Of a DNA stretch of 34,541 nt, positions 15,027-34,539 are shown piece by piece. The stretch spans positions 1 to 34,541 of the IMG/VR virus record IMGVR_UViG_3300020044_003104; one strand, given 5' to 3'. The translations under genes were made by a program, and so were the position numbers. The stretch comes from a virus. Lineage: Duplodnaviria; Caudoviricetes. The notes under the pieces were generated by a model. It saw only the letters and a list, made by a program, of their open reading frames with translations, had not been told where the DNA came from and made no database searches. How positions within the stretch are numbered: position 1 is the first letter of the stretch; each line of letters begins with the position of its first letter.

Positions 15027-15419
15027 TTACTTCTCCTTTGGATAAAACTTCCAAGGCAGTTCCCAATGTGGGCCATCCTTGAACGCACGCCAATCACCGC
15101 CCCATTGAAGCGGGACTTTCTCGTCAGCCGAAGCAGACTTAACTATTTTAGCTAAACGATGGTAAAGAGGCCAATCCCAGGACACCTTACTATTAATCAA
15201 CGGAGCCAGATCGACAGCGTGCCCAGTCAGGTGGCGCGAGTTCAACGTCTTTGATGCACCCTCTGCACGCAGCTTTCTTTGCCGTTCCAGAGTTCGTAAT
15301 CCTTCCAGCACAGTGAAATCTAAATCAGATATTGCCGCAGCTCTTTTGACAACGCGCACAAGATCAGGGTGGACACCCTCAAGCCGTGATAAACTGCGTT
15401 GACCTAGAACAATGCTCAT
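15027..15419 (-). CDS. Endolysin, peptidase M15 (L-Ala-D-Glu peptidase-like)
   Basis: LEGVHPDL, EGLRT.ERQ, SRHLTGHAVD, WGGDW, DGPHWEL; start ATG 15419. Confidence 0.92.
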   Translation of the reverse strand: MSIVLGQRSLSRLEGVHPDLVRVVKRAAAISDLDFTVLEGLRTLERQRKLRAEGASKTLNSRHLTGHAVDLAPLINSKVSWDWPLYHRLAKIVKSASADEKVPLQWGGDWRAFKDGPHWELPWKFYPKEK

Positions 15420-15598
15420 TAAACACCTGTTTTTAGCACACTTAGTAATATGCCAATTAGCAGCATTATAATCGTTCCACAAGCAGTGATGCCAAGGCTC
15501 TCGATCCGCTTCATTCTGGCGCAAATACTTTCATATCTAAACGCGCAGACTTGCTCGTGTGTGTTGAGCTGGGCCTGTGTTTGATCAATAGTGTTCAT
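15419..15598 (-). CDS. 59-aa protein with C-terminal TM helix (XhlA-like/holin-associated)
   Basis: Read by hand: MNTIDQTQAQLNTHEQVCAFRYESICARMKRIE...GTIIMLLIGILLSVL; TAATG coupling to the endolysin. Confidence 0.75.
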   Translation of the reverse strand: MNTIDQTQAQLNTHEQVCAFRYESICARMKRIESLGITACGTIIMLLIGILLSVLKTGV

Positions 15599-17321: not shown

Positions 17322-20156
17322 TTACTGAATTCGCACAACAGGTGCGCCGCTAGTTCCTGGCATTGAATCTTGCTGACCTTGCGTTACCGCTGCTTGAGTT
17401 CCAGCCGCCTGTATCAATGCTGGCTTTGAACCTTCAAGTCGATCAGATAGCTTGGTAAGAATGTTAGCTTCTTCCTTGCTTCCAGACTTTGTTTTTGCAA
17501 GCATCGCCATCAGGTTGCGGACAGGCTTACTTTCATAAGCGCGAACCGCTCCAGTGAAAGCCGCAGCCAATGCCGTGCCAACTCCGCCTGTTTGCAGAAA
17601 ATCTCCAAGCCCCAGAGCGCCAAGCAATAACGGAAAGTTTTCTTGTCCCGTTTGGGTCTTGACGCCAGCACCAGAAGCGCGGCGAGTGGCATTCAGGACG
17701 CGAACCAGGCCTTTGATTTCCTCCTGCTGTGACTTGCCGAAAAATACGCCAAGCTGATCCGCACGCTTGTTAATTTGCGTGATGAATTTTTCTGCACTGA
17801 CAGCGCCGCCCTCAACGCCCATATCTTTCGCAATACGATTGACGATTGCCATACGAGCTAGAGATTGGCCTTCAGGAGTTAGCGACTTATAGAGCGCAGA
17901 AACATCGCTCTTTTTGCCGCTGAACAGCATATTGTTAATGACTTCAGGCGTTGCTTCACCGTTGCGTATTATGCTCTTAAGAGCATTACGATTGGCTTCC
18001 TGAATGCCATCACTCAAACGTGCATCAGAAATGCGCCATTTATTATAGTTGGTACGCCCACCACGATCTAAAATGAAGCTACCCATGTCATCTTTGAATG
18101 GGCCATAAAGGTTTTTAACAGCAGCCTTTACGCGATCAGATGCGCCAACCGACAAGGCTTCGTCCTGCCACGCTTTGCCCAAAACATCGCGTCGGAAAGC
18201 ATCCATTGCTTCAATGTCTCGCCCAGCAGCTTGCCCACGAATCTCTTGCAACTTAGCAATGGCTTCGTCTGCGGCGGGTGTGCGAGCCTTCGATAAATCT
18301 GCGATTTGATCGTCAATGGCTTTGATAGTCTTATCAACAGCGACCTCTCCAGCACCCGCCAGCCCAGAGAAAACATCGCGCTTCAAGGTGGTGTATTTTT
18401 CAACAACGTCGCCGCGCTTACGAAGAACATCAGAAACAATGCGATCTTCTACGTCAGCCGGAATAGCGCCTGCATTTTCAATAATGAAGTCTTTTACCGC
18501 TACTTCACGGGCTTCCTGTTGAGTTGCGCGTGCGCCACCAGTTCCAACAATAGGAATACGCTCACCGATTGTTTGAGCAGCCTTACCCATAAACGTTTGA
18601 GGTGGGCGAATGTCGGATGTCATAACTGGGACGCCGGTGCGCTCACCAGCTTCAATGATTTCCCTTGGCGCAGCAGGTGCGATAAGTTCTTCTGTCACGC
18701 GAGATACAGGAGTAGCGGGCGCGGCGGGGGCAGTTGGTGGTGTTATAGGCACTTCAGGGCCACCACGAACGCCACGAACCGACGAAACAATTGCAGGCAA
18801 AGCTTGCTCAAGCAATTTACCCGCACCACCAGCGCCACCAGCAATAGCTATTTCTCTAGGGTTGAAAGTTCCACCCGCTCCAGCTTGCGTTGCTTCAATT
18901 CCAGTTTGAGTAAGCGCGGCACCGCCAGCAGCACCAGTAACACTAGCGGCACGACCAGCAGGAGTAAACGCAAGGATACCACCAAGCGCACGTGGAACAT
19001 CGCTCCAGCGAAAACCTGGCTTAATGCCATATTCTTGGCCATCTTGAGAGCGAAGGATATAGTTTCCATTAGCATCTTGACGCACTTGAACGCCTGGATA
19101 GTTTGACTTAATGATTTGCACCGATTCTTCGGGGCTTGTGAACATTGTACCGATACCTGTACGCGCACCAGCAATGGATAACTCGTTCAATTCAGGCATC
19201 GTTGTCCAGTCAGCGACAGCTTCAATCTCTGGAGTGCTGCGATCTGCGCCAGTTACAGTTTCAACAATGCCTTCAAAGAATCCGGTTTCTTCAGGTGCAG
19301 AGCCAGCTTCAGGTGGAAGAATCCGTGCGCCAAAATTACCGGCATTGCGGAATTCAATAGCTTTCTGAAGGTCTTCTTGATTAGGCGTAATGCCTAGAGT
19401 GCCAGCAAGAGCATTTAATTCCTCAATTGTAGCGCCCTTATTGAAGGCCTCTTGAAGCTGAGTTGCTTTGTCTGGCGTAGTCGACATTTCATACGGAGTG
19501 GCAAGAGTGATACCTTGCTTTTCAGGGTCTGCGCCTTGGTCAGTCATCAACCCACGATAGGTTTCCGCCAAAGAGTTATAGCCCTGAAGCCTCTGGTTGT
19601 AGATAGAGCGTGCAACGTCAGCCATGTCTTTACGCTGCGCTTCAGATAATCCTTCACCAGAAATCAACTGGTTGTAAGCGTTGCGAAAACGATCTGGTAC
19701 GCCAGCCGCATTTTGCACAGAAGCTGCTTCGCCTTCACGAACAGTAGAGCCTGGGTCTAGAATCTTCATCAAAGAAAAGACTGAGCCAATGTTTCCGATT
19801 GGAGTTCCTTTGCTTGTCAAATCTATAATTTGACGGGTAGCATTTTGAACCTGACGGAATTCTTTAACTTCTGGAATGCCTAAGAATTCAGTTCTCAATG
19901 AACCAATTTGCGAAAACTCTTTTGATGCAATATCACGGCTTTCACCACGGGCTGCACGAGCCTCCGAGCTTTCTCCAATCTCAGCTTGACGAGCTTTACG
20001 CGCTTCTTCAGCAACCTTCTGAGGAGAAGCTTGACGTTGCAATACTGGCCCTAAATTGGGTGGAGTAATTTCCTCGCGTGGAACACCGCCTTGGACAATA
20101 TAAGTCTTTCCGTCGCTGCCTTGCAGCCGTTGACCTTCTTGATATTGCTCAGCCAT
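17322..20156 (-). CDS. Large DNA ejection / internal virion protein (944 aa; P22 gp16 position)
   Basis: Last of the ejection cluster; Ala/Gly-rich hydrophobic stretches and a Pro-rich linker. Assigned by synteny. Confidence 0.7.
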   Translation of the reverse strand: MAEQYQEGQRLQGSDGKTYIVQGGVPREEITPPNLGPVLQRQASPQKVAEEARKARQAEIGESSEARAARGESRDIASKEFSQIGSLRTEFLGIPEVKEFRQVQNATRQIIDLTSKGTPIGNIGSVFSLMKILDPGSTVREGEAASVQNAAGVPDRFRNAYNQLISGEGLSEAQRKDMADVARSIYNQRLQGYNSLAETYRGLMTDQGADPEKQGITLATPYEMSTTPDKATQLQEAFNKGATIEELNALAGTLGITPNQEDLQKAIEFRNAGNFGARILPPEAGSAPEETGFFEGIVETVTGADRSTPEIEAVADWTTMPELNELSIAGARTGIGTMFTSPEESVQIIKSNYPGVQVRQDANGNYILRSQDGQEYGIKPGFRWSDVPRALGGILAFTPAGRAASVTGAAGGAALTQTGIEATQAGAGGTFNPREIAIAGGAGGAGKLLEQALPAIVSSVRGVRGGPEVPITPPTAPAAPATPVSRVTEELIAPAAPREIIEAGERTGVPVMTSDIRPPQTFMGKAAQTIGERIPIVGTGGARATQQEAREVAVKDFIIENAGAIPADVEDRIVSDVLRKRGDVVEKYTTLKRDVFSGLAGAGEVAVDKTIKAIDDQIADLSKARTPAADEAIAKLQEIRGQAAGRDIEAMDAFRRDVLGKAWQDEALSVGASDRVKAAVKNLYGPFKDDMGSFILDRGGRTNYNKWRISDARLSDGIQEANRNALKSIIRNGEATPEVINNMLFSGKKSDVSALYKSLTPEGQSLARMAIVNRIAKDMGVEGGAVSAEKFITQINKRADQLGVFFGKSQQEEIKGLVRVLNATRRASGAGVKTQTGQENFPLLLGALGLGDFLQTGGVGTALAAAFTGAVRAYESKPVRNLMAMLAKTKSGSKEEANILTKLSDRLEGSKPALIQAAGTQAAVTQGQQDSMPGTSGAPVVRIQ

Positions 20157-20157
20157 T

Positions 20158-20457
20158 CTATTTCCCTATCACAACGTGCCAATGTGGGCCTGTAGCATAT
20201 TTAGACGGGTTCTTCACCTCATCACGCGCTTCAATAATTTTATAACCAGCCTTACGAATGCCAGAAATGTATTCCTTAAATGTCACACCAGGTATTGGAG
20301 CAATATCAACTGCGCCTTTGGTTCTGGCGTGATAAGACCTTGGATTCTTTTTAGAAAGCGAATCATTTGGCCCACGATAACCAGATGTGATTCGCGCATT
20401 AGGGAACAGTTCACTAATTACTTTTCGCCCATCAGCGAAAGTTACCAGACGGCTTAT
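20158..20457 (-). CDS. Peptidase M15-like domain with no canonical start; candidate +1 frameshift extension of 20432..21208
   Basis: ITSGYR...SYH...GAVDI...HWHV Zn-ligand pattern. No in-frame ATG/GTG/TTG near the domain start. Confidence 0.75.
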   Translation of the reverse strand: MSRLVTFADGRKVISELFPNARITSGYRGPNDSLSKKNPRSYHARTKGAVDIAPIPGVTFKEYISGIRKAGYKIIEARDEVKNPSKYATGPHWHVVIGK

Positions 20458-21208
20458 CCGTCTGACCTCCTGTCGCTGGTAATGGCTTAAATGTAATTCC
20501 TGAAGGAGCCGTTCTCCCAGTAATAGGGCCAGTACCAAGAATATCAGAACCTCTATAAATAGCCCCACCTTCTTCAACTGCAAGAAGCTTTTCGCCCTGC
20601 AACTCAAGCCATGCGTCTGCTTTTTCCTTGCCCTGAATGCGGACTCGATCCTGATACTCTTTTCCAGTTGCAGAAAGGTTCTCATCTCCGCCATAAAGAT
20701 TCTTGTAAAGCTTCTCATCGCTTTGAGCCAACTGAATGGTCATTGGAAGAATTACAGAGTCAGGATCAATGTCGAAAGTCTTTAGTAGTGCCTCAGATGC
20801 AGCCGCCTGCTTTTCCTTTCCAGGCGTGTTTCTGTATCCATCTACTTGTGCTTTAAGCCTTGCACGGGCAGCATCTATATTCCCACCCCTAAACAGACCA
20901 ATAACTTCAGCGCGAAGTTGGTTCGCATTTGTGCGCTCCGCTTCATTTAATATGGATTCGCTTGCAGTAATTTGCTCTTTTAATTCAGGAAACAGAAGGA
21001 CATTTCTGGCGATATTTTCTGGTGATCTGTTATCAGCAATAGATTGCAACGCCGCTTGTCGTTGCTGTGCCATTTGCTGATCTTTTAATTGCTTTTCACG
21101 CGCCGCTTGTTCAGCAAGTCGCTGTTGATCGATAGCATTGCCAAAAGCATACGCATTTTGGAAAGCGGTCGTGGGTGATGCAATGTTATAGTTATATGGT
21201 TCAGCCAT
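20432..21208 (-). CDS. DNA ejection protein (P22 gp20 position)
   Basis: Gln/Ala-rich helical protein between the gp7-like and large ejection genes. Confidence 0.7.
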   Translation of the reverse strand: MAEPYNYNIASPTTAFQNAYAFGNAIDQQRLAEQAAREKQLKDQQMAQQRQAALQSIADNRSPENIARNVLLFPELKEQITASESILNEAERTNANQLRAEVIGLFRGGNIDAARARLKAQVDGYRNTPGKEKQAAASEALLKTFDIDPDSVILPMTIQLAQSDEKLYKNLYGGDENLSATGKEYQDRVRIQGKEKADAWLELQGEKLLAVEEGGAIYRGSDILGTGPITGRTAPSGITFKPLPATGGQTDKPSGNFR

Positions 21209-21843
21209 TAGAAAATCTTCCCTATTGCTGCCTGTCCAGCCGCGCTGGTTCCGAATCCAGTTATTGTTCCAAGCGCCTGATTAAAAGCATTGGCTTGTCC
21301 TAATGCAGAACCCGCTCTTGCCTGTCCTGCTTGAGTATATGCCTGTCCAATATTGGTCGCACTAGTCATGCCAGCCGTTCCAACGCCAGCAGCAGACTGC
21401 TGACCAAGACTCGTAAGGCCGGACAAGCGGCCATATTGCTGCTCTAGGAACTGATTTAACAATGCTGGGCGGAATTGAGCTAAAGCACCTTGAATATTGC
21501 CGCCACGAAGTCCGCCAGTTGCTGAGGCGTTCTGTAAAAGAGCTTCCTCTTGCTGCCGAGCTAAAGCTTGAAACATAGGGCTTTGCTCTTGCCCTCTCAC
21601 ATATTCTAGCTGCGCTTCTGGGCCATCAAAACCTAAAGCAGCCATCTGTGCTTGCAGGGCTGGCGTTCCAGCGGATACATAAGGGTTAAGCAGCGTCCGC
21701 ATTTCTTCACGCGCTGCACGCTGTTCTTCCGCAGCAGCGTCAGCCGCTTGCACTTGGGCCCTACCAGCCTTACTCGCCGCCTTGCTTGAAACAACGCCGC
21801 CGATAACTGCGCTTCCAATAACTGCTGCTGCTACTGCACTCAT
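21208..21843 (-). CDS. DNA ejection protein, P22 gp7-like
   Basis: Hydrophobic N-terminus; 'PYVSAGTPAL', 'NASATGGLRGGN..GALAQF', 'LGQQSAAG' motifs. Confidence 0.85.
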   Translation of the reverse strand: MSAVAAAVIGSAVIGGVVSSKAASKAGRAQVQAADAAAEEQRAAREEMRTLLNPYVSAGTPALQAQMAALGFDGPEAQLEYVRGQEQSPMFQALARQQEEALLQNASATGGLRGGNIQGALAQFRPALLNQFLEQQYGRLSGLTSLGQQSAAGVGTAGMTSATNIGQAYTQAGQARAGSALGQANAFNQALGTITGFGTSAAGQAAIGKIF

Positions 21844-21844
21844 A

Positions 21845-22732
21845 TCAATAACCCCCTATCGTCACGATTAAAGCCTGACGATAATCTACTGTAATTTCTT
21901 CGCCGTTGCTTCCGCCCTTGCATCCTGAGATGTCTCGTATTGCAACAAGGTATATATCACCATTTTCCATGCGAAACATCATTGCATTCGGATTCTTTGA
22001 ATGGTTGGTATAACGTCCTGCTGGTGTGCGGTATCCGCCCATCAATGCTGGTGCAATTACCTCAAACTGAGGGATGTTACCAGATGCAAACAATCCTTTG
22101 CCTTCGATTTGGCTATCACCAAGCGCGACCTTATACTCACCATGTGGAAACGGAATCTGGTCATATTCTAATTCAGATATTTCCCGCACTGTTTCAGGAT
22201 CAAAGCCGAACTCCTCAATCGCTGCATAAAAATCAGCAATATCTTCAGAGTGGTCAAAGCTTAACAGCATCTGGTTAAACTTCTTTGATTCCTGCCATGA
22301 CTCGCTTTTGTCTAAGAACATCTCATCAAGAGTATCAACGTCGCGCTCGTCGGTAGCAAAGACATTCTGCCAAATCACATCTTCATGGATGTAAGCTATC
22401 TTGCGACCAGGTGGTGCAATGAACGACTGTGGAGCAACTAGCTCTGTCTTTGTGCCATCGTCGTTTAAGATAGTCAGACGGCCAGATAGCATATTGTTAA
22501 AGTGAGTAGTCTTGTGATGATGACCTACCACATATGAATCCGCTGGCATAACAACTTCACGGATGTAAATGCCTGGAGCAAAGCGATGCGTAATAGGGCA
22601 ATCAGCTTGTGGCAGATCGAGAAGTGCTGACTCTAAACGTTGAACATCAGCTTCATTAAAAGCTTTCGTAAAAGGCTCAATAAGTGTGCCCTCGACTGTA
22701 TCAATGTCTTTTGTGCGGCATATTGCAGTCAC
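21845..22732 (-). CDS. Cupin + SET-domain fusion protein (putative protein-lysine methyltransferase)
   Basis: Cupin-like HRFAPGIYIRE...VGHHHKTTHFN; SET motifs SQIEGKGLFA, RYTNHSKNPN and GEEITVDY. Confidence 0.85.
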   Translation of the reverse strand: MTAICRTKDIDTVEGTLIEPFTKAFNEADVQRLESALLDLPQADCPITHRFAPGIYIREVVMPADSYVVGHHHKTTHFNNMLSGRLTILNDDGTKTELVAPQSFIAPPGRKIAYIHEDVIWQNVFATDERDVDTLDEMFLDKSESWQESKKFNQMLLSFDHSEDIADFYAAIEEFGFDPETVREISELEYDQIPFPHGEYKVALGDSQIEGKGLFASGNIPQFEVIAPALMGGYRTPAGRYTNHSKNPNAMMFRMENGDIYLVAIRDISGCKGGSNGEEITVDYRQALIVTIGGY

Positions 22733-29014: not shown

Positions 29015-29184
29015 TTCTTTGCCTTCCGCTTAGGAGCCTTTGATGGCTTCCCTGCTTTCATGGCAGCATCGCGTGCTACATTCAGTGCAATGGCGATGGC
29101 TTGTTTTTTAGGGCGACCAGCCTTTTCTTCCATCTTGATATTCTTGCCGATGCTTGCGCGGCTGAAACCTTTTTTCAATGGCAT
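29011..29184 (-). CDS. 57-aa Lys-rich protein (MPLKKGFSRASIGKNIK...KQAIAIAL...KRKAKK)
   Basis: Read by hand; AAGGAG SD; first gene after the coat terminator. Confidence 0.8.
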   Translation of the reverse strand: MPLKKGFSRASIGKNIKMEEKAGRPKKQAIAIALNVARDAAMKAGKPSKAPKRKAKK

Positions 29185-29201
29185 TGGTTCGCTCCTTAAA
29201 G

Positions 29202-29230
29202 AAAAGAGGGGGAAGCCGAAGCCCCCCCCA
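29202..29230 (-). terminator. Intrinsic terminator after the major capsid gene
   Basis: Minus strand GGGGGGGGC-TTCG-GCTTCCCCC followed by TCTTTT. Confidence 0.8.
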
Positions 29231-29236
29231 TCTCTA

Positions 29237-30511
29237 TTACGCTTGGTTGAAAAGCAGGATGCCTGCCATTTCTGGGTTCGTCATTACCACACCATACAGT
29301 GTGTCCAGCGTGTAAAGCGTCTGGAAGGTCAGTGGATCGAACTTCTTGGTCATGACCAATTCGATGCCCTGATCTGTAGCAGCACGAAGAACGTCAACGC
29401 CAGCGCCATCTGGAACAGCATAACGACCTGGGAGGAGTTCAATCGAATCCTTGCGCCAGAACGGGTTGATGTTCGATGCAGTGGTGTTGAGGAAGTTGAC
29501 ATCAGCAGTTGCCGAAGTCGCAGTTACTTCAACGTTCTGATACTGAAGTTCAGCATCAGTTGGCGACGAGTTTGCACCGATGATTGGAGGGCTGATAACC
29601 ATCGAAGTGCCGTTGACAACTTCAATGACGCGGAACGTCTTGAGTTCGCCAGTCGAACGCTTCGTGATGTGGTGAACAGCTTCAATGCCATCGATCGTGA
29701 ACGCATCGCCAGCAACAACGCCAGTTGTCGAGGAGACAGTGACGGTCTGATAGCGGTTGTCAACGTTGAGAATGCCGCCAGTGCTGCTGGTGGTTGCCTT
29801 TGGAACGTAACGAACCTGAGCGCCATTGGTAGCAATGGTGACAGTTGCAGCGTTAGCAGCACAACGGTTAGCGTAATCAAGCTTGTAGGTTTCAAAGCCA
29901 GCTACTGGGCCAACATACGAACGCTCATAAGCGTTTGCAGACTTGTTGCCAGTGAACGAACGAGTTGCGATTGCCAAGTTACCAGCCATGCCGTTGTAAT
30001 CGCGGCTCGACAAAGCGAGGTAGCGATCTTCAGCCATGACACCCTGTTCGTTCATGATGCTGTCGCAAAGCGCGATGTCATCATAATCGCCAGCAGCGGT
30101 TGATACGTCAACAACAAGCGTACCTTGAGCAGCAGCCAAATCCATAACGGAAAGGTTGATGTCCGAAGCAAGCTTCTGCTTTGCAGCAGCGCCCAAACGA
30201 TCTTCTTGCAATGCGTCACGAAGTTCCAAAGCATTCATTTCCCATGCCGAGCAAGGGCTGAAGCCCAAGGTCGAAGGAACAGAAAGCTGGGTCATCGTCG
30301 AAACACTAGAAGCAATCGAGCTGCCAATGGTACGTGTGAACGACTGAGCGATGTATGGTTGCGGACGCCACATGGTGTCACGAGCGCGTTCCATCGTTAC
30401 GCCGTTGGTGTTGTAGATGTTGATGTTCTTTGACAGGATCAAAGCATCGTTGAAGCCTTCGAGAATGTTCTCAAATGCAACAATTTCTTCTTTTGAAAAA
30501 GCGTTAGCCAT
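29237..30511 (-). CDS. Major capsid protein, P22 gp5-like
   Basis: 424 aa; follows the scaffold; 'MERARDTMWRP', 'AAKQKLASDIN', 'GDAFTIDG..AVH.ITK', 'DTLYGV...PEMAG'. Confidence 0.93.
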   Translation of the reverse strand: MANAFSKEEIVAFENILEGFNDALILSKNINIYNTNGVTMERARDTMWRPQPYIAQSFTRTIGSSIASSVSTMTQLSVPSTLGFSPCSAWEMNALELRDALQEDRLGAAAKQKLASDINLSVMDLAAAQGTLVVDVSTAAGDYDDIALCDSIMNEQGVMAEDRYLALSSRDYNGMAGNLAIATRSFTGNKSANAYERSYVGPVAGFETYKLDYANRCAANAATVTIATNGAQVRYVPKATTSSTGGILNVDNRYQTVTVSSTTGVVAGDAFTIDGIEAVHHITKRSTGELKTFRVIEVVNGTSMVISPPIIGANSSPTDAELQYQNVEVTATSATADVNFLNTTASNINPFWRKDSIELLPGRYAVPDGAGVDVLRAATDQGIELVMTKKFDPLTFQTLYTLDTLYGVVMTNPEMAGILLFNQA

Positions 30512-31473: not shown

Positions 31474-34400
31474 TCAAAAACCCATTGCCATTAAAAGCAA
31501 TGCGTTGTCGTTTTCTTGATCTAGCAGAAGGATTTCAATTGCCTCCTGCTCATCATCTAAGAATTGTTGAATCTCGTTTGCGGCAACTTTTAGGTCTTCA
31601 TTGAGACTGTTGTCATTCTGATCGTTTGAACCCTGGACGCTTAATTGTATTAGCAGTTTATCAAGCTGCCGTTGCAATGCGTCGGATGTGCCTTTTTCAT
31701 TTAGATAGGCATCTAATGTTCTGGCTGTTTTCTTTGCTACAGCCAGACTGCTTGTATTTAGAACATCGACATTCTTTGCAACCTGCTTGGCTGACAAAGC
31801 TGCTTCCAACATAGCGCGTTCGTTGGCGAAGCCTGTTTTCTTACGCTTAGTTCTTTTAGCTTTAGTGCTTGATGAATCCTCACCGCCGCCGCCACCAACT
31901 AATTGGACACCTGGCTGACTGACTGTAGCGGAATAGAAAATGTTCGTGTTGATGTAGAGCTGGGGTAGGAGTGTCTGCGCTCCACCAGCGATCGTAACGA
32001 TTGGGCTATAGAACACATTAGTGTTGTCATAGCGTGCAGGCGCAAGCGTGTTTGATGCTGCCACTGTGGGCGCATAGAATACATTTATATTATCGTAACG
32101 CGCAGGAGCAATCGTATTGCTTGTTGAAACCGTTGCTGCGTAAAACGTGTTTGGGTTAGTGTATAGAGCAGGAACAAGCGTCTGTGTGCCACTAGCTTGC
32201 GTAACCGTTGGCGTGTAAAATACGTTCGTATTATTATAGCGATTAGGCGCAAGCGTGTTACTTGTTGAGACCGTTGCGTTGTAGAAGACATTTGTATTGT
32301 CGTAACGCGCTGGAGTAAGCGTATTGCTTGCTACAACTGTAGCTGCGTAAAATACGTTCGTATTGTCGTAACGTGCAGGATTAACCGTATTGCTTGCCGT
32401 AACTGTAGCCGCGTAGAACGTGTTTACGTTTGAATACAGGCTCGGCAAAAGAGACTGCGGTGGGCCTGTCTGCGTTATTGTTGTCAGGTAAAAAGTGTTA
32501 GTGTTGGTGAACAGCGATGGGATCAGCGTTTGCGTACCCGATGGAGCAGCCGTGAATATCACGTTTAGGTTGTTGCCGCCGTCAGTTGAGTTTACACCGA
32601 CATAGAAGCGGTTGGCTTGGTTTACGCCAATGTCCTTGACGCTCAGATAGTCAATGCCGCTGGTTACGTTGGTCAGGTTAAACGTGCGGCGGGTTCCTGC
32701 GGTGTTGCTGTCTACCGTAACGACATTGCCTACTGTGCCTGTGATGCTCCAAGTGTCGATAGTGCCTTGGTTGGCATTAAGGCGAATAGTATGAGCTACG
32801 GTCTTTGTAGACGCTAGTTCAGTAAATGAGTTTGTGCCTGATAGCGATGTTGTTGATGTGCCTGTAGCGCCGCCGATGGTAAGTTTGTTGTATGATAGGG
32901 AGCCACCAGCAAAAATCCTAGTACCAGTCGTGGTGTTAGACAGCAGAATGTTGGCAGTATCTTTGTTAAATGTGAGGCTAGTTGTGGTTGCTAAATTCCA
33001 CACAGTTCCCGTATCACTTATTGTCCATAGACCAGAACCCATAGTTATGGTTCTGGTATTGCTATTACTGGAAGAAAAAGCTCTGCAAATCAGATTATAA
33101 TTGAACGCGTCAAACGTGCCGCTAGTGTGCGTAATCTGGTTGCTTGCGGTGTAAGCATCCCCAAGTCGAAACGTGCCGCTTGGAGCATTAACCGTAATCT
33201 GGAACGTGATGATTTTACCAGCACTAGTGAACACCATCGTGCTGCGGCCAGAGAAGGTTTGAGTAGAAGTGCCAGATACAGTTATACCAGAGCCAAGCGT
33301 GTAGGAGCCGTAACGGTTTACTCCCACGTTGTGGTTGAGCGTGATGCCTGTGGTTCTTGTAGAACAATCAAGACTACCAATGTTAAAAGCAGTGCCTAAT
33401 GCAAGCGTTCCTGTTAGCGTGGTGGCGTTGTCAATTACAGCCGTGTCTTGAGCCAGTGGGAAGTAAATTGTATTTGCGCTTCCGCCAGAAGTATCTGACC
33501 ACGCATTGCTGTTCCAGTTTGTAAGCGTGCCAACGCGATATACCGTCTTTGCCGCAGGGAACGTGATCCCACTGTTGCCACCGCAGTCGCCACCACGAGT
33601 GGGCGAGATAGGCGCTGCCGCCCCAGCAATGGTGATGTCACGGAAGTCACAGTCATTAGCAGATACAGCCGCACAGGTGAGGGTGCGTGTTGTGCCAATG
33701 ATATTGGACTGGACAAAGCCCCGCGCAACAGCAGACGAGCCAGCGCAAGTGAAAGTGCCGCTGACGGTTTGGTCGGCAGCGATAAACAGTTGGGTTAGGC
33801 CACTTCCGTTGGCGGTAAGCGTCAGGTTGTTAAATGTGTTTGCGCCCGTGATTTGGCGGGCTCCAGCGGATGTGTTGGTAAAAGAGACGTTGTAGAAAGT
33901 TTGACCGCCGCCGCTAAGAGTAGCACTTGAACTAGATAAATTAAGCTGAGAGGTTCCTGCGTTAAACGTGAGGTTTGTAGATGTAGTAAAGTCTATACCA
34001 GTGCTACCCGAAGATAAAGTTAAGGTGCTTGACCCCAGAGAAATAGTTCTGACGTTGGAGTTAGATGATGAAACCGAAACTCCCGTAACGCTGAAATTTG
34101 CAGTGTTAAATGTTCCTTGCGTAACAGTCAGTGTTCTTCCGCTTATGTTCAGCGCATCGCCAAGCGTTAGTGTAATACCTGAGCCGTCAACCACCACGTT
34201 AGTGAACGACTTGCCCGCAGTCGTTAGCGTCCCCGTTCCAGTGATTGTCATTGTTCCGGTGTGGGTGTAAGTCATGCCCGCAACAAGCGTCACGCTGCCT
34301 GCTACGGTAATAGCCCCTGTGCCAGCAATCGTCCCAGCAAAGCCCGTACAGTTAATTGACTTCGCGCCAGTGTTGCCCGTGGCAATCGTGCAAGTGCCAG

Positions 34401-34539
34401 TGGATAAGGCGCTAAAAAACACATCATCAGCGGTAGTTGGAACGGACGCGCCACCAGCACCGCCAGAGGTAGTTGCCCACTTAGTCCCTGCCGTGCCGTC
34501 CCAAGATGCCGTGCCACCTACCCAATAACGATCAGCCAT
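31474..34539 (-). CDS. 1021-aa Thr/Gly/Asn-rich fibre/adhesin-like virion protein
   Basis: Two tandem ~330-aa beta-rich modules, nine 22-25-aa repeats, a basic linker and a helical C-terminus. Confidence 0.75.
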   Translation of the reverse strand: MADRYWVGGTASWDGTAGTKWATTSGGAGGASVPTTADDVFFSALSTGTCTIATGNTGAKSINCTGFAGTIAGTGAITVAGSVTLVAGMTYTHTGTMTITGTGTLTTAGKSFTNVVVDGSGITLTLGDALNISGRTLTVTQGTFNTANFSVTGVSVSSSNSNVRTISLGSSTLTLSSGSTGIDFTTSTNLTFNAGTSQLNLSSSSATLSGGGQTFYNVSFTNTSAGARQITGANTFNNLTLTANGSGLTQLFIAADQTVSGTFTCAGSSAVARGFVQSNIIGTTRTLTCAAVSANDCDFRDITIAGAAAPISPTRGGDCGGNSGITFPAAKTVYRVGTLTNWNSNAWSDTSGGSANTIYFPLAQDTAVIDNATTLTGTLALGTAFNIGSLDCSTRTTGITLNHNVGVNRYGSYTLGSGITVSGTSTQTFSGRSTMVFTSAGKIITFQITVNAPSGTFRLGDAYTASNQITHTSGTFDAFNYNLICRAFSSSNSNTRTITMGSGLWTISDTGTVWNLATTTSLTFNKDTANILLSNTTTGTRIFAGGSLSYNKLTIGGATGTSTTSLSGTNSFTELASTKTVAHTIRLNANQGTIDTWSITGTVGNVVTVDSNTAGTRRTFNLTNVTSGIDYLSVKDIGVNQANRFYVGVNSTDGGNNLNVIFTAAPSGTQTLIPSLFTNTNTFYLTTITQTGPPQSLLPSLYSNVNTFYAATVTASNTVNPARYDNTNVFYAATVVASNTLTPARYDNTNVFYNATVSTSNTLAPNRYNNTNVFYTPTVTQASGTQTLVPALYTNPNTFYAATVSTSNTIAPARYDNINVFYAPTVAASNTLAPARYDNTNVFYSPIVTIAGGAQTLLPQLYINTNIFYSATVSQPGVQLVGGGGGEDSSSTKAKRTKRKKTGFANERAMLEAALSAKQVAKNVDVLNTSSLAVAKKTARTLDAYLNEKGTSDALQRQLDKLLIQLSVQGSNDQNDNSLNEDLKVAANEIQQFLDDEQEAIEILLLDQENDNALLLMAMGF
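31911..32535 (-). repeat. 9 x 66-75-bp coding tandem repeat (PARYDNTNVFYAATV...)
   Basis: Visible in both protein and DNA. Confidence 0.9.

Follow-up and report, generated by a model that had tools for sequence, protein, structure and literature searches.

In a tailed phage genome, the gene for an ejection protein that occupies the position of P22 gene 20 ends in a 34-nt cassette that very probably programs a +1 ribosomal frameshift, which would yield a 258-residue ejection protein along with a 349-residue form bearing a predicted peptidase. The cassette is composed of an internal Shine-Dalgarno (SD)-like sequence, a hairpin, a spacer and a predicted shift site (Table 1). As judged from its recurrence and covariation across loci, it is a real and conserved element that is likely functional. 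The window, namely the whole stretch of 34,541 nucleotides analysed here, is a complete 34.5-kb virus record (IMGVR_UViG_3300020044_003104) with direct terminal repeats. It encodes a P22-like structural module comprising the portal, coat, gp4, gp10, a head-binding tailspike, a gp7 homologue and a DNA-transfer protein.

Table 1. Features of the putative frameshift cassette and its gene neighbourhood in the window
Feature	Coordinates	Strand	Basis
Internal Shine-Dalgarno-like AGGAGGU, read as Gly-Gly in frame 0	20465..20471	-	GGAGG conservation
Hairpin, 7 bp with 5-nt loop (8 bp with closing U-G)	20446..20464	-	MFE and centroid folds; covariation
Spacer, 5 nt, fixed in length, variable in sequence	20441..20445	-	Comparison of elements
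Predicted shift site UUU_C at Phe257, with tRNA-Phe re-pairing from UUU to UUC	20437..20440	-	Pattern without TTT; conservation
Frame-0 stop UGA, one sense codon (CGC) past the shift codon	20432..20434	-	Sequence
+1 ORF, 93 codons, likely M15/LAS-fold Zn peptidase	20158..20439	-	Invariant residues; AlphaFold; fold matches
Ejection-protein gene, P22 gene 20 position, short product of 258 aa	20432..21208	-	Position between gp7 homologue and DNA-transfer protein
gp7-like ejection gene, upstream neighbour	21208..21843	-	Pfam P22_gp7, E 1.3e-7; PHROG 598
gp16-like DNA-transfer gene, downstream neighbour	17322..20156	-	PHROG 770, E 1.9e-67; starts 1 nt past the +1 ORF stop

The SD, hairpin, UUU_CGC and stop lie on the minus strand exactly where the first-pass annotation, made from the letters alone, had placed them. 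The two arms of the stem span 20464-20458 and 20452-20446. Downstream, the +1 frame is open from UUC (20439) to a TAG at 20160-20158, and the next ATG lies at 20156, 1 nt on, which agrees with the earlier reading that the encoded domain ends 1 nt before the next gene. A covariance model detected one cassette site in the whole genome. A four-letter read-through of the whole ejection gene found UUU_C in frame already at codon 73; the tetramer alone is thus common and the read-through uninformative. In the -1 frame, positions 20418-20432 hold a 4-codon ORF that begins at a TGATG overlap, and this overlap start is not conserved. The -1 frame is closed six codons past the shift site in 48/124 elements, which is probably a by-product of the Val-Ile codons of the domain.

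The gene order gp7 - gp20 - gp16 is present in the window, and among the element loci with enough flanking sequence a gp7-like gene lies upstream in 68/95 and a gp16-like gene downstream in 69/92. Residues 23-236 of the 258-residue product align with gp41 of Sphingopyxis phage VSN-002, which is annotated as an injectosome translocase, with a sequence identity of 23% and an E-value of 1e-7. This pairwise alignment is the sole link, as the product matches no Pfam or PHROG profile, gp20 included. N-terminal similarity was not found in pairwise comparisons with Pam1 gp14 and the fusion alignment. Directly upstream of the ejection genes, a 295-residue protein (21845-22732, minus strand) resembles tail-fibre adhesin PHROGs in its N-terminal half and matches a SET domain at its C-terminus (Pfam E 1.4e-7). 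A 1021-residue ORF (31474-34539, minus strand), which matches no Pfam or PHROG profile, sits between the portal and scaffold genes and runs across the genome end. A 347-codon ORF antisense to the coat gene (29060-30103, plus strand), which has no Pfam match, is probably a shadow frame.

The +1 domain in the window is likely an M15/LAS peptidase, as predicted from its residues and modelled fold. The M15/LAS zinc motif consists of an Arg and H-x6/7-D ... H-x-H, and the residues R22, H37, D45, H86 and H88 of the domain are invariant in 19 close homologues. The AlphaFold model has a pLDDT of 94.9, and its best fold matches (VIA) are the M15/LAS enzymes 9flh and 1lbu, at a modest Z of 5.9 with RMSDs of 3.8/3.3 over 82/83 aligned residues. 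Searches of Pfam, PHROG and PDB sequences returned no match to the domain, Foldseek gave no clear match, and a profile comparison against one M15 sister domain was not significant. Among other M15-like +1 domains at the same place, 5/9 pass the Pfam profile Peptidase_M15_3 (PF08291). The length of about 93 residues given earlier for the domain is right, and its M15 type stands as likely. The window also encodes a separate M15_4 endolysin (15027-15524, minus strand), a lysis peptidase besides the frameshift-linked one.

The hydrolase behind the cassette is interchangeable. Among 124 elements of the extension type, in which the domain follows in the +1 frame, the +1 cargo is M15-like in 114, belongs to two groups of SLT lytic transglycosylases in 3 + 3, and is of the NNPGN type in 4. 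These unrelated domains (M15, PF08291; SLT, PF01464; NNPGN type) begin at the shifted codon, and the C-termini of the ejection proteins upstream of the shift site are widely different. The same M15-like domain forms the C-terminus of 39 proteins longer than 600 residues, lies in the middle of 20 more (proteins P0011-P0122), and opens a long ORF in locus L047. These varied positions indicate that it moves among neighbouring ejection genes, and hydrolase domains have been described to shift between ejection proteins (PMC8954989).

Homologues of the window locus retain the GGAGG, a covarying hairpin, the TTTC and a +1 hydrolase ORF, so the alignment proposed in the first-pass annotation came out in favour of the element. 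A search with the peptidase only retrieved 47 viral loci, 46 of which carry the same cassette and the same +1 relation; in the remaining one the domain stands at the start of a long ORF. A search with the ejection protein retrieved 16 loci, the six closest with the cassette and ten distant ones (26-31%) without; at four of the six closest, the cassette precedes a different M15-like subfamily. An alignment of fused homologues contributed 160 further loci, many of them repeating earlier contigs: 95 have the cassette with the domain in the +1 frame, 5 have it with the domain in frame, and 60 were negative by that detector, a few of these being SD variants or having a longer linker. Altogether, 479 sequences collapse into 133 distinct elements (124 extension-type, 7 with the domain in frame and 2 other), which are distinct sequences rather than independent lineages; many loci are close kin, and the counts overstate independence. 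Rfam held no match to the cassette at E up to 5, and blastn of the cassette against cultured phages returned chance 17-mers only. A pattern scan of genomes gave 14 matches, 2 real and 12 by chance. Among 401 genomes of the Sphingopyxis family, the domain was matched in 6; the one examined carries the cassette, and the other five matches are weak. Two candidate loci (L126 and L131) were rejected as cassettes, since they are the ordinary ribosome-binding site of a tail-tube gene, with an ATG in the hairpin loop 8 nt from GGAGG.

The cultured phage Pam1 carries the cassette, with an A-U to G-C change in the stem and UUU_U at the shift site. Its gene Pam1_15 is annotated as a 49-residue protein that starts at an internal ATG; the whole 103-codon domain lies in the open +1 frame behind the cassette (L184:3435-3779; ON014753 11171-11515). 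The cassette is also found in a prophage of the isolate genome Sphingopyxis bauzanensis DSM 22271, and another genome of the Sphingopyxis family provides a second prophage carrier. A 42-kb contig in a Cellvibrionaceae metagenome-assembled genome (L314, CAZIWB010000059.1) holds a cassette locus that closely resembles the Sphingopyxis prophage; the contig may be a mis-binned phage. The first-pass annotation had counted plain in-frame fusions lacking the SD and hairpin as evidence against recoding. Such fusions do exist: VSN-002 encodes the same two halves in one frame (gp41) and lacks the cassette, and 40 gp20-like fusion proteins occur among the best 120 longer homologues. Yet the cassette is present in 46 of the 47 peptidase loci, and the occurrence of the same two halves as plain fusions in turn counts in favour of the frameshift reading.

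The shift site and the SD were each assessed with a detector blind to them. For the shift site, a pattern of SD and stem without TTT retrieved 120 loci, of which 119 were parsed. TTT is located exactly 5 nt behind the stem in 104/119, always in the frame of the GGA codon, and the following base is C in 102 and T in 2. Of the other 15, 14 appear to be chance matches, and in one a GTT takes the place of the TTT of its sister locus (L276); this single GUU_C may be an error. Ordinary upstream UUU codons are followed by C or U in 94/429. C and U are the two bases that let tRNA-Phe re-pair, and UUU-pyrimidine is thus a re-pairing signature. For the SD, a detector that used the hairpin and TTT was run on 209 protein-selected sequences; GGAGG occurs in 53 of the 55 distinct elements that it found and GGAG variants in the other 2. 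GGA opens 13/284 upstream Gly-Gly pairs. The distance from GGAGG to UUU is 25 nt in the window and 22-31 nt in variants.

Further comparison of the stems revealed both-sided changes in 6/7 pairs over 34 elements; such cells number 44, compared to 12 in shuffles. Another 9 elements form a register-shifted class with an 8-bp stem whose 5' side is moved by one base, and 6/8 of its pairs have both-sided changes; the 3' end of the stem stays 5 nt from UUU even when the 5' register shifts. The complete pairing in these stem sets (100%) derives partly from selection by the hairpin detector, and the compensatory changes do not. The hairpin loops lengthen in steps of three, and the amino acids encoded by the stem vary freely.

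A frame-0 stop follows 1-5 codons from UUU in 120/124 extension-type elements. The codon after UUU is CGC in 59, CAA in 34, CCN in 20 and another in 11, with CGN codons totalling 62/124. No Arg codon is used more often in these genes than CGC, and the E-site codon varies. The A site thus holds a common sense codon in 122/124 elements, and in 2/124 a stop stands directly after UUU. Since the A-site codons are common, the 5' signals rather than a hungry codon likely drive the slip. The likeness to the influenza PA-X site UUU_CG that had been drawn for the window holds for UUU plus a pyrimidine; by the codon counts in the 124 elements, the CG after UUU is dispensable. A -2 slip was rejected, as the -2 codon does not encode Phe and changes together with the E-site codon. 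Shift-site variants include UUU_UCG in Pam1 (L184), the single GUU_C (L269), and two UUU_U sites with a prfB-like A-site stop, TTT TAA in L257 and TTT TGA in L267.

We propose that the cassette would act as follows. The ribosome would unwind the hairpin while decoding that stretch. When UUU occupies the P site, the last three bases of the spacer would fill the E site and the stem would begin two bases beyond; only at this step, its 3' arm having cleared the E-site side of the mRNA channel, could the stem re-close. Refolding would loop out 19 nt and leave GGAGG and the P-site codon ~6 nt apart, and GGAGG could then dock onto the anti-SD of the 16S rRNA. The anchored and crowded ribosome would then be pushed one base forward by the slip of the P-site tRNA-Phe from UUU to UUC, for which a rare A-site codon would be unnecessary, and a fraction of the products would be the 349-residue fusion. 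The spacing of the SD known to stimulate +1 shifts is 3 nt (PMC5009743); given the linear gap of 25 nt in the cassette, or ~6 nt with the stem formed, we infer its role here. In P22, gp20 assembles into a dodecameric tube that traverses the peptidoglycan, and its C-terminus is located close to the inner membrane (bioRxiv 10.64898/2026.09.03.749273). In a similar periplasmic tube, the cassette might set the share of hydrolase-bearing subunits, a few of which would open the wall while leaving the end of the tube and its exit channel uncrowded.

Alternatively, the hairpin could bring the SD near a non-canonical start, such as the AUA in the loop, as in a split ribosome-binding site, and the hydrolase would be a separate small protein. 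Formation of the stem places the SD at 6-7 nt from UUU/UUC, similar to the effective spacing of 5 nt in T4 gene 38 (PMC3014915), and a +1-frame CUG occurs in the 3' arm of the stem in 96/124 elements. This CUG is missing in the other 28 and base-paired, and ATG, GTG or TTG is found at any one place in at most 32/124, so that no start is shared. As had been pointed out when it was suggested as a start, the loop AUA (20457-20455) belongs to the +1 frame and is spaced 7 nt from the SD, but only 2 of the 124 distinct elements have AUA there, and we discard it. The domain had also been described as lacking a start of its own; in the window, however, the +1 frame stays open well upstream of the site, and an ATG at 20718, which would open a 186-residue ORF, had been missed. 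It is not a conserved start, as the two closest relatives have stops in that stretch of the +1 frame, 12 and 18 codons upstream. Initiation at the site would moreover leave unexplained a frame-0 UUU followed only by C or U, the re-pairing signature of tRNA-Phe. In-frame fusions exist, and in loci where a shift would truncate the protein a start at the site opens only 2-10 codons. Altogether, initiation is an improbable account of the cassette.

It is distinctly improbable that the cassette is a pause or mRNA-stability element or encodes a Gly-rich linker, with the +1 ORF translated only through reinitiation or a leak that is not programmed. Ribosome pausing at internal SDs can occur (PMC6321510), and the GG-x8-F peptide is kept in 20/40 in-frame fusions, where the hydrolase needs no shift. 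However, the synonymous choice of GGA, the invariant UUU-pyrimidine and the covarying stems are constraints at the nucleotide level, and 124 distinct elements have an intact +1 ORF that starts precisely at the site. Transcriptional slippage, in which the hairpin would make RNA polymerase skip one base as at the T5C5 tract of Roseiflexus IS630, is very improbable: a nascent stem-loop 5' of a slip site can give transcripts one base short that also enter the +1 frame (PMC5009743), but with just 3-4 T and a mixed, variable spacer a hybrid of 9-10 bp could not realign, and the SD and the constant frame-0 UUU would be left unexplained. That an in-frame fusion was misassembled or has recently become a pseudogene has a close to negligible probability, for although in-frame fusions of the same halves exist, the same frame break recurs in 46/47 loci, in Pam1 and in S. 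bauzanensis DSM 22271, and a contig more than 99% alike (possibly from the window's own sample) crosses the junction without a gap, contrary to the indel that the first-pass annotation had allowed for.

Nine loci (L082, L148, L165, L319, L320, L321, L396, L400 and L424), spread over several lineages, have an intact or near-intact cassette followed by an M15 domain in frame, with a stop in the +1 frame 2-10 codons on; a slip there would remove the hydrolase. In 3/7 stems of this in-frame type, the arms differ by 4-5 bases from any extension-type stem and are still fully paired. A set of 111 M15 domains was thinned to 44 for a tree, with 10 non-M15 rows left out and close kin standing for the window; on this tree the in-frame label requires 8 changes, at least 5 of them forced by well-supported branches. 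The peptide GG-x8-F encoded by the cassette occurs in 20/40 gp20-like fusions, compared to 0/39 gp16-size proteins that end in the same domain. The early +1 stop is weakly beyond chance, with a combined p of 0.016 over 7 non-independent loci, and may derive from the domain's own first codons. The in-frame-type cassettes may also be left over from fusions that became fixed or, in single cases, result from errors of assembly. Functional truncation by the cassette at these loci stands, on these comparisons, at about even odds. Tentatively, and with slightly less than even confidence, we consider that the cassette might represent a new recoding class, namely an elongation-phase split ribosome-binding site that serves as a portable 34-nt ratio switch in both polarities and was flipped by single-base indels several times.

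A +1 slip from UUU to UUC likewise takes place in msi172-msi171 (FseA) of Mesorhizobium ICEMlSym, at 4-13% (PMC4755241). There, a G-rich stretch (Trp-Gly) lies 3-4 codons upstream, the product is a regulator, and the available text mentions no hairpin (PMC5009743); in the phage, a covarying hairpin separates the shift site from GGAGG, which lies 10 codons upstream in a virion gene. The release factor 2 gene prfB likewise places an internal SD upstream of a single-tRNA +1 slip; its SD precedes the shift codon by 3 nt and its A site holds a stop, compared to 25 nt and a common sense codon in the cassette. Hairpins upstream of the shift site stimulate +1 shifting in yeast and 70S reporters (PMC3639245, PMC6321510). 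In the SARS-CoV attenuator and the engineered +1 reporters they lie a few bases 5' and depend on strength and spacing (PMC3639245, PMC6321510), and in the 70S reporters the effect required an empty A site with no RF2 (PMC6321510). Those +1 effects were seen on reporter constructs, with the hairpin substituting for an SD, whereas the hairpin of the cassette is natural, conserved and combined with an SD. The split ribosome-binding sites of T4 gene 38 and gene 25 similarly possess an SD, a hairpin and a P-site codon at working distance (PMC3014915), but they direct initiation on AUG, whereas the cassette has an internal UUU and no conserved start codon. Influenza PA-X (UCC_UUU_CGU) also slips from UUU to UUC in the P site (PMC3498833); it is eukaryotic, uses a rare CGU and an E-site UCC, and shifts at about 1.3%, whereas the cassette needs neither CG nor UCC. 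In SPP1 gp17.1/17.1* and the Listeria PSA and A118 Cps and Tsh proteins, a +1 shift near the stop likewise adds a domain to a fixed share of subunits, at a subunit ratio of 3:1 in SPP1 (PMC6316719, PMC5009743). These systems slip on CCC proline codons, and capsid or tail-tube proteins gain Ig/FN3-like domains; here, an ejection protein would gain a hydrolase, and the polarity appears to flip between lineages.

A literature search, with subscription papers mostly outside its scope, found no description of the cassette or of a frameshifted ejection protein, and the available parts of PMC5009743, PMC10885494, PMC3711429, PMC10732093, PMC9382816 and PMC8954989 describe no such cassette. Taken as a whole, the comparative evidence makes it likely that the cassette programs a +1 frameshift, with SD and hairpin together forming a composite stimulator of an unusual kind on the 5' side. 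If so, it would provide a natural, conserved 5' hairpin that stimulates +1 shifting, an effect found in this literature only on reporter constructs, and an SD that acts across a hairpin during elongation. How 5' duplexes push the ribosome forward would be testable on a 34-nt cassette with natural compensatory variants, and cultured material is at hand in Pam1, the prophage of S. bauzanensis DSM 22271 and, as a fused control, VSN-002. The annotation of the Pam1 domain as a 49-residue fragment exposes a systematic annotation gap. Moreover, the cassette points to a way in which P22-like phages that infect bacteria of freshwater and soil may pass the tube through the cell wall while most of its subunits remain without the extra domain.
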